From assembly GCA_046758445.1 (NCBI GenBank), contig JBHIAE010000003.1, positions 55,379 through 119,378 of the forward strand: a stretch of 64,000 bases of DNA, written 5' to 3'. Positions 2,085-43,957 of the stretch are shown here, in pieces. How positions within the stretch are numbered: the stretch's first letter is position 1; each line of letters begins with the position of its first letter. The notes under the pieces were generated by a model. That model was given only the letters and a program-made list of their open reading frames with translations. It did no database searches and was not told the origin of the DNA. This DNA comes from Candidatus Thorarchaeota archaeon. Lineage in GTDB: Archaea; Asgardarchaeota; Thorarchaeia; Thorarchaeales; Thorarchaeaceae. Made by a program: the position numbers and the translations under genes.

Positions 2085-4069
2085 CTAATGGTTTAGCAAA
2101 ATGGAGTTGTGTTCTACTGGCTCGAAACACAGGTCGGCGTAAGAAGTTCAGAAGGTCTCACGCGCCCTATCTTGCGGAAATCAGGCTCTTTTGGTGTGAT
2201 TCCTGTAACGTACCGACGCCTGCAAAAACAGAATGTAGCACATGTGGCAGCATTCCTAGGAGAGTCGGAATCTCTCCTCCCGGCGACCCATACCCGGCCA
2301 TGGAGGGCCATCTCAACTATGCAATCAAGACAATTGACACGCAATTCGGCGAAGGGGTGGGCAAGGATCTTCTACCTGCTGGCAAGACCATAGTAATGAA
2401 CAAGATTCCCTCGCTAGATGCGATGTTCGAAATCGTGATTGATGGCTACATTATTGGCAGACTGCGATATGAAGTCCCTAAGCATGATTACACTTTCTTA
2501 CTGACACTTGAGGGTGGGAGAAGGATTGGACAGTCGAGCAGACAGAAATGGGTTAGTTGTTACGATGACGTTCTGCAGTATCTAAAGAAGGGTGCGAACC
2601 TGATGGTTCCGGGTATTGCTGGATGCGACTCCGACATTGAGGTAGGTGACGAGGTATGGGTTACTGACAGTAATGGCAGCGTGATAGGTGTTGGGACAGC
2701 TCGGATGAGCGGAGAGCAGATTGCAGCAGAACCCAAGGGCTATGCAATCAAGATCAGAGAGGTGGACAATCCCCGGCCACCCGCCATAAACCCGAAGAAT
2801 GCGACTTGGGATGAAGCAGTAAATGCCAACGCAAGGGAGATTGACCGCATTGAGGAAGAAGCAGTCACTTTCATCAGGCGCACCATTGAGAAGAGAAGTC
2901 TACCTGTGGTAGTGGGCTTCAGTGGTGGGAAGGATTCTCTTGCTACATACTTACTAGTAGAGAAGGCTCTTGGTCGGAGCCCCCCTTTGTTCTTCATGGA
3001 CACTGGCTTGGAGCTACCTGAAACAGTTCAATATGTGAGTGAGTTTGCTGAGCGGCACGAAACGATTGTAGTTGGACAGAAGGCAGGGCACAAATTCTGG
3101 GAGTCTATCGGTTCTTTTGGTCCTCCTGCCAGAGACTTTCGTTGGTGCTGCAAGATACTGAAACTGGGACCTGCTGCACTATCCATAAGCGAGGAATTGG
3201 ATGGCAGCACACTCACCTTCATGGGTCAAAGAAAGCTGGAGTCATTCCAGCGTTCTGTAGAACGTCGAGTATCACACAATCCATGGGTGCCTGGGCAGAC
3301 CTCTGCCAACCCAATCCAGAACTGGAACGCTCTCGAGGTCTGGCTGTACATCTTCAGAGAGAAGGAGCCCTTCAACATAATGTACAACAAGGGCTATCAC
3401 AGGATGGGGTGCTATCTGTGTCCTTCATCCCCGCTCGCAGAGATTGAAAGCCTTGGTGAAACTCACCCCGAACTTCACACAAGATGGCGAGAAGAGCTGA
3501 ACAGGTGGGCCCAGAAACTTGGCCTTCCTGAAGAGTGGGTTGACATGGGTTTCTGGAGATGGAAGCGGCTGCCTCCAGGGCAGCTTGGTATGATTGACAG
3601 CCTCGGCCTAGAGATAGAAGCAGATAGTCCCGGGCGTAAAGAAGGCCTAGATCTGACTGCTGTAAAGGGGGTTTCTCCCTGTGTGGAGTCGGGCTTTAGC
3701 TTCGAGGGGCAATTCTCAGCAGGCATTGATCTCGACAGAGTGTCAAAGCTGGCGCCCATCTTTGGGAAGACCAAGGTATCTCAGGAGCTGGGTGCTCTGA
3801 GGACAAAGTCTGGAGAGAACACGATTTCACTGTTTAGTTCAGGTTCTTTGGTTATTCGCGGAAATTCAAATTTGGAGGTTGATCAGTTGGCGAGGCAGGC
3901 AGAGCGCGCGGTGAAACGTTCTTTGTTCTGTCAGGCATGTGGAACCTGTGTGCCCCAGTGCGAACAGGATGCTCTGAACCTGAATGAAGGCATGATAGCT
4001 GTTGATGAAGCGAAGTGCACCAACTGTCTCAAGTGCGATCAGTGGCCTTGTCCCATATACTTGGACTGA
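2081..4069 (+). CDS. PAPS-reductase-family (PP-loop) protein with N-terminal Zn ribbon, PUA domain and C-terminal 4Fe-4S dicluster; true start may be slightly downstream
   Basis: WCDSCNVP..CSTCG; GANLMVPGI (PUA); FSGGKDS; RWCCKILK; RMGCYLCP; CQACGTCVPQC and CTNCLKC. Confidence 0.88.
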   Translation: MTNGLAKWSCVLLARNTGRRKKFRRSHAPYLAEIRLFWCDSCNVPTPAKTECSTCGSIPRRVGISPPGDPYPAMEGHLNYAIKTIDTQFGEGVGKDLLPAGKTIVMNKIPSLDAMFEIVIDGYIIGRLRYEVPKHDYTFLLTLEGGRRIGQSSRQKWVSCYDDVLQYLKKGANLMVPGIAGCDSDIEVGDEVWVTDSNGSVIGVGTARMSGEQIAAEPKGYAIKIREVDNPRPPAINPKNATWDEAVNANAREIDRIEEEAVTFIRRTIEKRSLPVVVGFSGGKDSLATYLLVEKALGRSPPLFFMDTGLELPETVQYVSEFAERHETIVVGQKAGHKFWESIGSFGPPARDFRWCCKILKLGPAALSISEELDGSTLTFMGQRKLESFQRSVERRVSHNPWVPGQTSANPIQNWNALEVWLYIFREKEPFNIMYNKGYHRMGCYLCPSSPLAEIESLGETHPELHTRWREELNRWAQKLGLPEEWVDMGFWRWKRLPPGQLGMIDSLGLEIEADSPGRKEGLDLTAVKGVSPCVESGFSFEGQFSAGIDLDRVSKLAPIFGKTKVSQELGALRTKSGENTISLFSSGSLVIRGNSNLEVDQLARQAERAVKRSLFCQACGTCVPQCEQDALNLNEGMIAVDEAKCTNCLKCDQWPCPIYLD

Positions 4070-40685: not shown

Positions 40686-41705
40686 CTATTCGAACAGGCC
40701 ACCAAGGCCTGCAACTTCTTCTTCTCCCTCTTCTTCCTCTGGCTCGTCCTGCTGTTCTGATACATCTGTGGTGGTTGCCGCAGATTCAGTTGCAACAATA
40801 GGCTGAACCTGGCTGAGGACTTCCGAGGGTATTGCTTCTGGATCTTTCTCGGAGACTGCTGCTACTATTGCGAATGACTCCGCACTTGCCTTGGCCAAGA
40901 ACTCTCCGAGCAGATCTGGCTCAAAGAAACCGACATCAAGAGCTAGACTTCTAGCTTCAATGTTGGCTTTTGCTACGATTATTGAAATAGTGTCTTCGGT
41001 TGGGAAACCTGTGTTGATTGAGAGGTTCACTGCAAACTGATGACCTACGAAGATCTGTTCTAATAGACCGCCCAAATCGATTTCTAGACCTTCAGATGTT
41101 ATCACAGAACCATCAGCAAAGGCTGCAATAAGCTTCAACTGAAGCTCCATTGGTTCAATTCCCAGCCGCGTAAGCATCTGAGCCATTGCATTTGATATGA
41201 CATCACCGGCCTTCACAGCTACAGTGTCCTCGATTATGTGTATGACCCCGCCTTTCACACGGGACGGAATCTTGAGTCCAGCCAACTCACTTATGAAGGG
41301 GCCTGGAGCAACACCGGTGTTCATCGATGGAACAATGATATCTTTTGGTGCAGTCTGACCACCTTTAGCTGGAGCTGCCGCCTTGTTTTCACTCAGGAAC
41401 TTGGTCAGTACGTAGGGATCTTGATTGCTGAAGATGAACGCAACGGGACCGCCGACATATTCGGTTAGCTGTTTGACGCCCTTCTTCTTTGCATACTCAA
41501 GGGCTCTTATCATGAGCGTGTTTCGAGCCATCTTAATCATAGCAGAGCCTCTGAGACTCTCTCTGATTCCTGCCAGTTGCTTGGCGCCAACACCTTCCAC
41601 ATTTACGAGACCTATCATCTGGCTACCGTCGATCTGCGAAGCCAGTTCCACCACGGCATCGAGCTTCCATTGTGGAATCTTCTTCTCATATACTGACATC
41701 TTCAT
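40686..41705 (-). CDS. rpl10: 50S ribosomal protein uL10/P0
   Basis: IPQWK, RNTL, APAKGG, TGVAPGP, GLGGLF. Confidence 0.96.
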   Translation of the reverse strand: MKMSVYEKKIPQWKLDAVVELASQIDGSQMIGLVNVEGVGAKQLAGIRESLRGSAMIKMARNTLMIRALEYAKKKGVKQLTEYVGGPVAFIFSNQDPYVLTKFLSENKAAAPAKGGQTAPKDIIVPSMNTGVAPGPFISELAGLKIPSRVKGGVIHIIEDTVAVKAGDVISNAMAQMLTRLGIEPMELQLKLIAAFADGSVITSEGLEIDLGGLLEQIFVGHQFAVNLSINTGFPTEDTISIIVAKANIEARSLALDVGFFEPDLLGEFLAKASAESFAIVAAVSEKDPEAIPSEVLSQVQPIVATESAATTTDVSEQQDEPEEEEGEEEVAGLGGLFE

Positions 41706-42367
41706 CCTCTCTCCATTGGCACTGCAATTGACGGTCCCATTGTATTCTTGACTAGAACACTCCCCACACGATCAATCAGGCCTTTGCTGTCCACAAAACT
41801 GAGGACCTCAGCAATATTGTCAGCTATCTCTCTGTCACTCATCTTGACATGACCCACTTTGACATGGAATGTCGGTGTGTTTCTCATCCTTACGCGTACT
41901 GTTCGTTGATATTGGTCAACAACGGGGCCCAAGTCTGCTTGAGGCGGAAATGGTCTTGGCATCTTACCTCTCGGTCCGAGTGCCTGACCTAGGTAGCGAC
42001 CGACTAGAGGCATCGCATCTACAGCGGCTATGAAGAAGTCGAAGCCCTTGGCGAGTGCCTTTCGCTCCTTCTTCTCATCGCCCAGCTTTGGAATCTCTTC
42101 CTTCGAAACAATTCTCTGAACACCGGCCGCCTGTGCCTTCTCAGCAAACTCACCATCGCCAAACGCACAGACTTTCGTAGCAGGATACATTGCGTTGGGA
42201 AGTACAAGCTCCTGATTCAATCTATTCTCAGGCTTGGAAACATCCAGTTCCTTCTTCCTGAAGTTGACTGCCATGTCAAAGCTCTGTTTGAACTTGATCT
42301 TTCTCTTCTTTCCCTTGGCCCTTGCCTCTGCCACGGCTGCTTCGATTGGTTCAATCTTGAATGACAT
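41702..42367 (-). CDS. rpl1: 50S ribosomal protein uL1
   Basis: FKQSFDMAVN, LGQALGPRGKMP, KNTMGP. Confidence 0.96.
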   Translation of the reverse strand: MSFKIEPIEAAVAEARAKGKKRKIKFKQSFDMAVNFRKKELDVSKPENRLNQELVLPNAMYPATKVCAFGDGEFAEKAQAAGVQRIVSKEEIPKLGDEKKERKALAKGFDFFIAAVDAMPLVGRYLGQALGPRGKMPRPFPPQADLGPVVDQYQRTVRVRMRNTPTFHVKVGHVKMSDREIADNIAEVLSFVDSKGLIDRVGSVLVKNTMGPSIAVPMERG

Positions 42368-42370
42368 CGA

Positions 42371-42877
42371 CTAGGCCTCCCTGAGCGGTTCATCCAGTTG
42401 AGTGTCCCAGACGCCTTCCCGGACATCGTTCTGAAACTCCTTTGCCGACTTCTCCTCGATTGTCACTCCCATCGAAACACAGGTTCCTGATACAATTAGT
42501 ACCGCACCCTTCAGGGTAAGTGCCGAGAGATCGGCCGATTTTCCCTTGGCGATGGTCTTCAACTGGTCAATGGTGAGGTTGCCTATGATCTCTGTTTTTG
42601 GCTCCCCCGAACCCTTCGGCTGACCTATCTCCTTGAGGATCAGGGCACTTGTCGGTGGAGTCCCAACTTCAACTTCGAAGGTCTTGTCTAAAGGATTCAC
42701 AGTGATCTTGACTGGAACCTTCAGTCCCACGAATGGCTGGGTCACCTCATTGATCTTTGTGACTACCTGAAAGATGTTGACACCAGTTGGACCAAGAGCT
42801 GGTCCTATCGGTGGTCCTCCTGACGCTTTGCCGCCCTCTACCATTGCGTCAACTACTATGGGTTTTGTTTCACTCAA
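42371..42877 (-). CDS. rpl11: 50S ribosomal protein uL11 (TTG start inferred)
   Basis: VEGGKASGGPPIGPALGP, VGTPPTSAL, GTCVSMGV. Confidence 0.96.
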   Translation of the reverse strand: MSETKPIVVDAMVEGGKASGGPPIGPALGPTGVNIFQVVTKINEVTQPFVGLKVPVKITVNPLDKTFEVEVGTPPTSALILKEIGQPKGSGEPKTEIIGNLTIDQLKTIAKGKSADLSALTLKGAVLIVSGTCVSMGVTIEEKSAKEFQNDVREGVWDTQLDEPLREA

Positions 42878-42882
42878 ACTTG

Positions 42883-43050
42883 CTTCAACTCCTGATGCAG
42901 TGCTCTCGGCATATCTGCGGACACGCCTACTAGTGACGACCTGCTGGCACAATCAGCACTCTGTCCAGCAAGGTCTACTGCATTCATAGTCACTTCTTTC
43001 ACCCCTGACACGACGTCTCGCGTCCATGTCTGATTAAGGAGTTGGAAGTC
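42883..43050 (-). promoter_or_regulatory. Candidate structured 5' leader RNA of the L11-L1-L10-L12 operon
   Basis: Six helices of 6-11 bp, G-U pairs favour the minus strand; TATA-like CCTTAAAA about 20-25 nt upstream; closing helix includes the AGGAG SD. Confidence 0.6.
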
Positions 43051-43076
43051 CCCACGGGCAGAGTGTTTTAAGGCTT

Positions 43077-43343
43077 TTGGAGTGTGAGGAGTCTAGGACT
43101 CGACCAGAGATGAATCAATCTGAGGATGACCATACAGAGGCCTCGGAACTCGATGAGGAAGATGAAGAGCGGCAGCAGGAGTTCGCAATTAGAGCTGTCG
43201 AGATAATCCAGACTGTTGTTGAGGACTTGGATGAGAGAGGAAAGAGAATTTGGCGCAAGATGCTGGGGATTGATCCAGGGCCTCAGTCGTGCGCCCAGAA
43301 AGAGTCGTCGTCCAACTCATCATCATCAAACTCCTCATCCTGA
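43077..43343 (+). CDS. Possible small acidic hypothetical protein, antisense between spt5 and rpl11
   Basis: Helical-looking EFAIRAVEIIQTVVEDLDERGKRIWRKMLG; 3' end overlaps spt5 on the opposite strand. Confidence 0.3.
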   Translation: MECEESRTRPEMNQSEDDHTEASELDEEDEERQQEFAIRAVEIIQTVVEDLDERGKRIWRKMLGIDPGPQSCAQKESSSNSSSSNSSS

Positions 43344-43957
43344 GGAGTCTCTTCAGCCTCGGCCTCTTCTCTATGAGCCTTCTCAACAATCTTGGCAAAG
43401 TCTGCATGCACTCTGATTGGGATTGTGTGAGGACTATCGAGCAATTCGAGGATGAGTTCTTCCTTAGCTGCGTCTACCCTGGCTACCTTAGCACGCTCGC
43501 CCTTGAAAGGACCCGAGATGATCTCCACGACATCTCCCATGGATATGCCTTCTGCCGCGGGCTTGGGAACCAAGAACTTGTCTATCTCCTCAAAGCTCAC
43601 CTTTCCGCCCACGCGCCCTCGCACATGAGGGACGCCGGAGATGGCGATTTCTACATCTCTGAACTCCAGAGTTTCCAAGAATACATAGCCACGAAGGGTC
43701 TCAGGGACAAGGATTGCCTTGACGCGTCCAAGCAGCTGATTCTGAGAAACAAGCTTGGGTTCTCCTGTCTTCTTTCGTTTCTTCTTACAATTATCCATGT
43801 GCTCTTCTGTAGCCTCTCTTGAGGAGAATTGTTCCGAGCAGAATGGACACTCCCAGACATCTGTTTCACCAATTACGGCGGTTGTGATCAAATCGGTTAC
43901 ACCGCGTTCTTGGCCTATTGTGGTCCTGACTGCATAGATGCTGCTTCTTTGTTCCAA
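43283..43957 (-). CDS. spt5: Transcription elongation factor Spt5 (NusG) with inserted CCHC zinc finger and acidic tail
   Basis: IYAVRTTIGQE, LRGYVFLE, KOW GDVVEIISGPFKGERAKV. Confidence 0.95.
   Translation of the reverse strand: MEQRSSIYAVRTTIGQERGVTDLITTAVIGETDVWECPFCSEQFSSREATEEHMDNCKKKRKKTGEPKLVSQNQLLGRVKAILVPETLRGYVFLETLEFRDVEIAISGVPHVRGRVGGKVSFEEIDKFLVPKPAAEGISMGDVVEIISGPFKGERAKVARVDAAKEELILELLDSPHTIPIRVHADFAKIVEKAHREEAEAEETPQDEEFDDDELDDDSFWAHD

Follow-up and report, generated by a model that had tools for sequence, protein, structure and literature searches.

The ribosomal protein operon L11-L1-L10-L12 of Thorarchaeota is preceded by what the comparative data support as a conserved, structured leader RNA, restricted to this group and previously undescribed. 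An open reading frame (ORF) with its own Shine-Dalgarno (SD) sequence runs through this leader and ends at the L11 start codon. The analysis started from a 64,000-nt stretch of DNA from a Candidatus Thorarchaeota archaeon (hereafter the window, to whose positions all coordinates refer), which had earlier been inspected from its letters alone; that sequence-only reading proposed a pseudoknotted leader that sequesters the SD of L11. As judged from the alignments, the presence of a second, better SD and of a conserved upstream ORF (uORF) would change the likely mechanism from the one first suggested. The reading that we favour, to which we assign a probability of roughly 60%, is that translation of the leader ORF is coupled to that of L11 and that the 5' hairpin domain probably gates leader translation, perhaps under ribosomal-protein feedback.

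Genomic context and phylogenetic range

Pfam annotation of the minus strand yielded Spt5, a gap and the genes for L11, L1, P0 and P1 in this order, in agreement with the operon context that had been claimed, and the in-frame start of L11 is a UUG, as the TTG of the sequence-only reading implied. The genes and the gap are as follows.

43283-43957, minus strand: Spt5/NusG, the upstream neighbour (Pfam Spt5-NGN and KOW)
about 405 nt, minus strand: gap between Spt5 and L11, with the leader inside
42371-42877, minus strand: L11 gene, UUG start at 42877-42875 (Pfam Ribosomal_L11_N and Ribosomal_L11)
41702-42367, minus strand: L1 (Pfam), beginning 3 nt past the L11 stop
40686-41705, minus strand: P0/L10 (Pfam), with an ATGA overlap with L1
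40350-40664, minus strand: P1/L12 (Pfam)

Initiation at the UUG retains the conserved N-terminal strand of L11; the start context UUGAGYGAA is kept in relatives, and most orthologues likewise begin with UUG, a weak start codon. The product of the upstream neighbour, Spt5, is 224 aa long and carries an acidic tail and, within its NGN domain, a Cys/His zinc-finger-like insert (43735-43870, minus strand) with weak Pfam matches to zf-C2H2_2.

The range of the leader was examined with a BLAST query of 261 nt of the leader region, with a MAFFT alignment of 25 orthologues (A1) and the covariance model built from it (R1), and with an alignment of 72 sequences (A2). BLAST detected the region in all 16 same-genus genomes, with identities of 74-97%, and, in 8 more genera of the family, its 5' core; the position was between Spt5 and L11 throughout. 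The covariance model recovered the leader upstream of L11 in 70 of 70 Thorarchaeota loci, which had been fetched via the L11 protein, and, in a search of 151 genomes of the phylum, in every genome of the same GTDB family (26 of 26, representing 14 genera), with one copy in each. The order Spt5-leader-L11 was found in 25 of 25 family loci. No match to R1 was obtained in 124 genomes from 26 other Asgard families, nor in the L11 loci of Bathyarchaeota, Thermoplasmata, Hydrothermarchaeota or Jordarchaeum. Outside Thorarchaeota, most loci have Spt5 and L11 directly adjoining; that of Jordarchaeum has a gap of 446 nt, in which the leader motifs are missing.

In most genera the whole gap between Spt5 and L11 measures about 220-300 nt, a length into which scarcely more than the promoter and the leader fits. 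The extra ~180 nt found in the subclade of the window are an insertion upstream of the leader promoter. Inside this insertion, which is restricted to the subclade, lies an acidic ORF of 77 codons (43110-43343, plus strand; 88 codons if read from a TTG at 43077), within the gap between Spt5 and the leader, on the strand opposite to the operon and pointing away from the L11 promoter. At its 3' end it overlaps the stop region of Spt5, which is encoded on the other strand; this ORF has no Pfam match, and tblastn matched it in 7 same-genus genomes at 61-100% identity.

When positions 42300-43700 were scanned on both strands against Rfam 15 (cmscan, E<=10), no relevant family was matched, the L10_leader and riboswitches included; the sole match was a chance-level C/D-box on the other strand, with 16.5 bits against a cut-off of 36. 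A tRNA scan of the leader region gave none, and full-text literature searches returned no description of such an L11-operon leader. The suggestion of an undescribed Asgard ribosomal leader is upheld for an element that is conserved, structured, specific to Thorarchaeota and without an Rfam match.

Predicted transcript start and secondary structure of the leader

The features of the leader, from its putative promoter to the SD of L11, are listed below in the direction of transcription.

43065..43081, minus strand: putative promoter, an A-rich BRE-like stretch and TATA-like CTTAAAAC (43072-43065), conserved in all orthologues
43042..43043, minus strand: predicted transcription start, A residues just 5' of CUCC, placed by TATA spacing
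43038..43041, minus strand: P1 5' strand CUCC, like the 16S 3' end (anti-SD-like), which pairs with GGGG at 43005-43002
43031..43037, minus strand: internal-loop strand UUAAUC(N) between P1 and P2; U, U, A and A invariant in 25 sequences
43007..43030, minus strand: P2 hairpin GACAUGGACG / CGUCGUGUC, with a conserved loop of C-N-A-G-A type; covariation
42999..43005, minus strand: SD1 GGGGUGA, SD of the upstream ORF, 5 nt before its GUG; GGGG is the P1 3' strand
42874..42993, minus strand: upstream ORF, GUG at 42993-42991, 39 codons, UGA at 42876-42874; the stop overlaps the UUG of L11 (UUGA)
42977..42983, minus strand: P3 5' strand AUGCAGU, which pairs with 42901-42895
42938..42975, minus strand: P4 hairpin, with a GACC..GGUC base, an internal irregularity and a distal stem; covariation at the base
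42908..42927, minus strand: P5 hairpin GGCGUGUC / GAUAUGCC; covariation
42895..42901, minus strand: P3 3' strand ACUGCAU, which abuts the SD of L11
42889..42893, minus strand: SD2 AGGAG of L11, 11 nt before UUG; conserved as CAGGAG

The TATA-like element had been pointed out by the sequence-only reading and is retained in orthologues. Between the end of its TTAAAA hexamer and the conserved CUCC lie 24-25 nt in 63 of 71 sequences. Archaeal promoter geometry suggests that the conserved A-rich and TATA-like stretch functions as a promoter, and by the same standard geometry the leader transcript would begin 1-2 nt before CUCC, giving a predicted 5' UTR of about 165 nt downstream of the TATA box.

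Alignment A1, made with MAFFT alone, yielded the five-helix consensus, P1 to P5, that also holds in A2, and 7 of its pairs had changed on both sides. In A2, 90.8% of cells were paired against 84.5% in column shuffles, a level that none of 500 shuffles attained, and 24 of 36 pairs showed changes on both sides, counts that overstate the number of independent observations in that the sequences are related. As a control, the partners were slid by 1-3 columns, which left only 27-41% of cells paired. Single-sequence folding was only mildly better than that of shuffled sequences and equal by strand (z = -2.16 and -2.33 on the two strands), so that the case for structure rests on the comparative data. 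The transcribed strand is fixed by the frequency of G-U pairs, for which the sequence-only reading had already noted a preference for the coding strand, together with the fact that R1 matches the minus strand only.

Three hairpins proposed at the outset reappear in the consensus, each with covariation. GACAU..GUGUC corresponds to P2 (43030-43007), which is paired in 94.5% of cells; in 8 of its 9 pairs both partners have changed. GACC..GGUC is P4 (42975-42938), with both-side changes in 3 of the 4 pairs at its base and a variable distal part. The third is P5 (42927-42908), where all 6 modelled pairs have changed on both sides; this hairpin folds in every orthologue though its sequence differs, and is missing in the short variants L073 and L076. 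These two Thorarchaeota MAGs carry natural minimal leaders, without P5 and most of P4, that retain P1, P2, P3 and an SD-like GGAGUGA or GGAGUUA; their 22-codon leader ORF has a stop overlapping the AUG start of L11 (AAAUGA).

The tertiary arrangement proposed with these hairpins fared less well. Of the two helices that were to cross, AUGCAGU/ACUGCAU is present as the 7-bp P3, yet not as a member of a pseudoknot: it is predicted to close a three-way junction with P4 and P5. Apart from a single C-G for A-U exchange, in L085, P3 hardly varies, so that its support is complementarity and not covariation; 98.8% of its cells are paired. The other, AGUGAC/GUCACU, is paired in 53.7% of cells, no better than in shuffles; since it is not conserved, there is no pseudoknot, and an all-against-all column scan of the alignment gave no covarying helix or pseudoknot beyond P1-P5. 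The long closing helix CUUC(C)AACUCCU/AGGAGUUGAAG, which was to sequester the SD of L11, is likewise not conserved across 70 sequences, its outer pairs being broken in about 45 and its core U-A pair in 27 of them. The 5' half of this helix lies upstream of the predicted transcription start and would therefore not be transcribed.

At the 5' end of the predicted transcript, P1 (CUCC/GGGG) is a plausible helix. It is pair-compatible in 100% of 71 sequences, with one-sided changes only (C-G, U-G and U-A), and is weak in the energy model, with a mean pair probability of 0.14. The nucleotides of the adjoining UUAAUC loop are retained in the 72-sequence alignment as well. Taken as a whole, the element shows what is generic to ribosomal-protein leaders, namely a fixed position in the 5' UTR of a ribosomal protein operon (70 of 70 loci) and a secondary structure with covariation support, here in P2, P4 and P5.

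An open reading frame that ends at the L11 start

In all 70 aligned sequences a GUG, AUG or UUG stands 5-7 nt past GGGGUGA, and the start column of the 70 leaders holds GUG in 51, AUG in 10, UUG in 9 and CUG in 0 cases. This SD is itself near-invariant: GGGGUG and the next A do not vary in 25 sequences, and few of 72 sequences deviate. The organism's own 16S tail ends in AUCACCUCCU, and SD1 could form 7 contiguous pairs with it (UCACCUCC). The same 16S gene (L126, about 3040-3155) was seen to carry two small insertions near its 3' end, the first of about 28 nt inside AAGUCGUAAC/ACAAGG and the second a ~30-nt hairpin between helix 45 and the anti-SD tail.

From the start column, the leader ORF extends over 36-41 codons (22 in the two naturally shortened leaders) and passes through the P3-P5 junction and the SD of L11. 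The first base of its stop lies at most 8 nt, on either side, from the first base of the L11 start. The frame is stop-free in 67 of 70 sequences; of the two remaining frames, one is stop-free in 0 and the other in 17. Between GACC and the 3' strand of P3, where the leader is variable, the leader-ORF frame holds 4 stops over the 70 sequences, against 71 and 71 in the others. This open-frame pattern spans at least 14 genera and persists across indels. Where lineages are set apart by a 1-nt indel, the invariant ACUGCAUCAGGAG block falls into different frames, as LHQE or HCIR, and yet the ORF terminates at the L11 start in each, by way of different stop codons.

Most family members have GGAG-NN-GUGA between the SD and the start of L11 (A2 columns 197-203; window 42889-42883), and in most the UGA of this GUGA, or a nearby UAA or UAG, is the stop of the leader ORF. 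The window and its two closest relatives have GGAGUUGAAG in its place, with the stop moved 3 codons downstream onto the L11 start. Four apparent exceptions were encountered: three leaders whose canonical frame is cut short by an early stop, and L085, where the anchor column is missing. In three of these four, a leader ORF runs from another start codon and ends at or just before the L11 start. The alternative start is a UUG-AUG opened by a UAG-to-CAG change in L078, an AUG inside P2 in L080 and an AUG in L085, which leaves L097 as the only orthologue without an intact leader ORF.

Another definition of the uORF, by the frame that ends in UUGA, was discarded: it gives a long open stretch in only about 14 of 71 sequences. 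It is the start 5 nt after GGGGUGA that defines the conserved uORF.

Proposed control of L11 translation

According to the reading that we favour, transcription would start about 24 nt past the TATA box, placing CUCC at or next to the 5' end of the RNA, whose 5' domain would comprise the weak P1, the invariant UUAAUC loop and P2, with P1 holding the first four bases of GGGGUGA. A ribosome on the leader ORF would unfold the P3-P5 junction and terminate at the L11 start, whereupon the terminating ribosome or a newly recruited subunit would initiate L11; L1 and P0 would follow via their near-abutting or overlapping starts. Control would be exerted at the leader's own SD, in that P1-P2 would hide GGGGUGA and so shut down the operon. 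A free operon-encoded ribosomal protein may stabilise P1-P2. Leader translation and its coupling to L11 synthesis are what we infer from the conservation of the frame, and the role of P1 and of any protein ligand has the same standing.

Two published observations bear on this scheme. Termination-reinitiation coupling in archaea requires very short stop-start distances, and a distance of ~20 nt nearly abolishes it (PMC10666635). L1 represses the L11 operon leader in E. coli and L1 operons in Methanococcus (PMC3616713), and by this precedent L1 would be the leading candidate ligand among the proteins encoded in the operon.

The placement of the two SDs is relevant to where control would act. The uORF SD forms the 3' strand of P1, facing the anti-SD-like 5' end, beside the UUAAUC loop and the conserved P2 loop. 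The SD of L11 directly abuts P3 at a distance of 11-13 nt from the start codon. The consensus structure leaves it single-stranded, and its predicted probability of being unpaired averages 0.52. CUCC could also base-pair here, sometimes with a 1-nt register shift, and among the pairings predicted for this SD the one with CUCC is the commonest. The predicted thermodynamic accessibility of SD1 and SD2 was heterogeneous and gave no clear switch. If the 5'-terminal CUCC sequesters any SD, the comparative data would favour that of the uORF over that of L11.

A more elaborate version of the scheme, which we regard as doubtful, would make the 5' end itself the sensor. In this version, the anti-SD copy CUCCU at the mRNA 5' end would toggle between the two SDs and gate an obligatory leader ORF for L11, L1 and the stalk proteins, and would sense free ribosomal protein or translational capacity. 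If real, a toggle module of this kind would be without archaeal precedent as a uORF-based feedback circuit for ribosomal proteins, and would parallel, in a prokaryote, the uORF control of eukaryotes.

Alternative explanations

The conserved fold might also be explained by a classical ribosomal-protein leader that acts through its structure alone: L1, or P0/L11, would bind the junction or the SD-side loop and block the 30S subunit, and the open frame would never be translated. The covariation of the helices and the position of P3 next to the SD of L11 are compatible with this explanation, as is the resemblance of the SD-adjacent CAG-GA-GUC of the leader to CAG-GA-GCG in the L1 stalk of the organism's own 23S rRNA. 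Described L1-binding mRNA sites are stems with an internal bulge, which contains a G-A pair and an unpaired A and is flanked by conserved pairs (PMC3616713), and the leader can form a G-A rich internal loop bordered by a GAC/GUY helix, with GGC/GCC in L077 vs GAC/GUC in L067. When modelled across the alignment, however, the candidate L1-type internal loop (GAC/GUY and UG/CA around AGGA) was 79% paired, a value that 221 of 500 column shuffles attained; it shows no covariation, and its strand order is permuted relative to rRNA. Two resemblances found by eye, of UCAGGAG to the L1 stalk and of GUCUGGGGGUGA to the GTPase-associated centre of 23S that binds L11 and P0, are both at chance level given how much sequence was compared, on a par with other chance 8-9-mers, and count as no more than leads. 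The leader covariance model matched neither of the 23S rRNAs searched, the organism's own included, BLAST against the own 23S returned chance-level 6-9-mers only, and Rfam offered no match either. A purely structural leader also leaves unexplained the depletion of stops (4 vs 71 and 71), the NUG start column and the fixed position of the stop, and we consider it unlikely. The organism's own 23S gene (L032, 1501-4831) is 3331 nt long against the 2987 positions of the archaeal model, which implies insertions of several hundred nt, and it lies on a different contig from the 16S gene.

The invariance of UUAAU and of the P2 loop nucleotides, and the fact that CUCC has two alternative purine-rich partners (GGGG and GGAG), would also suit a metabolite or ion riboswitch or an RNA thermometer, in which P1-P2 or the junction would toggle CUCC between the two SDs. 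Riboswitch classes usually govern several metabolic or transport genes. The leader occurs as a single copy per genome, always at the ribosomal protein operon, and has no match to an Rfam riboswitch, which makes this explanation distinctly improbable.

Less credible still is a small gene in front of L11, with a functional protein of 36-41 residues as its product. Such a gene would be expected to show what is seen here, a good SD followed by a start codon and a frame kept open among relatives, but the C-terminal half of the ORF is read in different frames across lineages. The leader ORF shows no third-position excess of variation and no codon periodicity. The synonymous share of its codon differences is 9%, the lowest of the three frames, and no synonymous variation occurs in its conserved first codons, an indication of constraint at the level of the RNA. 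A functional leader peptide was rejected on the grounds of the missing periodicity and the switches of frame between lineages. From the same observations, translation itself and not the peptide appears to be selected, and what the alignments indicate to be preserved is an open, initiable frame ending at the L11 start.

Least probable of all is an independent small non-coding RNA gene that merely adjoins L11, which would account for the leader's own promoter and conserved fold but not for its constant position and orientation upstream of L11, nor for the SD and start of L11 belonging to the same conserved block with nothing between.

Relation to other leaders and uORF systems

To our knowledge, only a handful of archaeal ribosomal-protein leaders have been identified, and our literature searches found none reported for Asgard archaea. 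Asgard archaea are the closest prokaryotic relatives of eukaryotes. The element described here is a large, covariation-supported RNA present throughout a family, in which a folded leader is combined with a conserved, non-coding-like uORF placed right at the L11 start. Should the coupling to L11 prove real, four proteins of the L1 stalk and the GTPase-associated centre would depend on leader translation, tying ribosome production to translational capacity. The leader also constitutes a compact RNA for binding and structural study in an uncultured lineage, and a candidate new Rfam family.

Among known systems, the leader of the E. coli L11 operon (rplKA) resembles that of Thorarchaeota in lying directly upstream of the L11 gene. 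In E. coli, L11 and L1 are translationally coupled, so that control at the L11 start governs both, and the bacterial L1 site is a small stem of 6-12 bp with one internal bulge (PMC3616713). The Thorarchaeota leader, in contrast, has about 165 nt, five helices and a translated-looking uORF, and no similarity in sequence or model was found between the two; the initial impression of an element larger than a simple L1 site was correct in this respect. The L1 operon of Methanococcus vannielii and M. jannaschii is a closer parallel in being archaeal, in controlling L1-L10-L12 and in having a repressor encoded in the operon (PMC3616713). Its site directly precedes L1, and L11 is located elsewhere, whereas the Thorarchaeota element precedes L11 in a contiguous set of four genes and its L1-like loop model is without covariation.

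The bacterial L10 leader (RF00557) and the archaeal r-leaders of S15, eL15 and L4 share with the present element that they are structured 5' UTRs of ribosomal protein operons. Comparative genomics has yielded r-leader candidates, some of which mimic rRNA (Eckert & Weinberg 2020, PMC7247131); among the 20 candidates of that study there is no L11, L10 or Asgard motif. A conserved upstream ORF, as in Thorarchaeota, is not described for the L10 leader or for the S15, eL15 and L4 motifs.

For the uORF, the nearest likeness is with archaeal termination-reinitiation coupling (Huber et al. 2019, 2023), in which an upstream stop overlaps or nearly adjoins a downstream start. The known cases couple two protein genes, whereas here the upstream partner is a leader peptide that is not conserved, inside an RNA fold that is. 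In bacterial leader-peptide (uORF) regions, it is the translation of a short ORF and not its product that sets the expression of the main gene. The Thorarchaeota L11 operon resembles them in having a short ORF in its 5' leader, and differs in being archaeal and in the placement of this ORF, which belongs to an operon of ribosomal proteins; neither a stalling motif nor an attenuator-terminator alternative was found in the leader. Set beside these systems, the element would unite the action of a ribosomal-protein leader with that of a device for coupling through a leader ORF.
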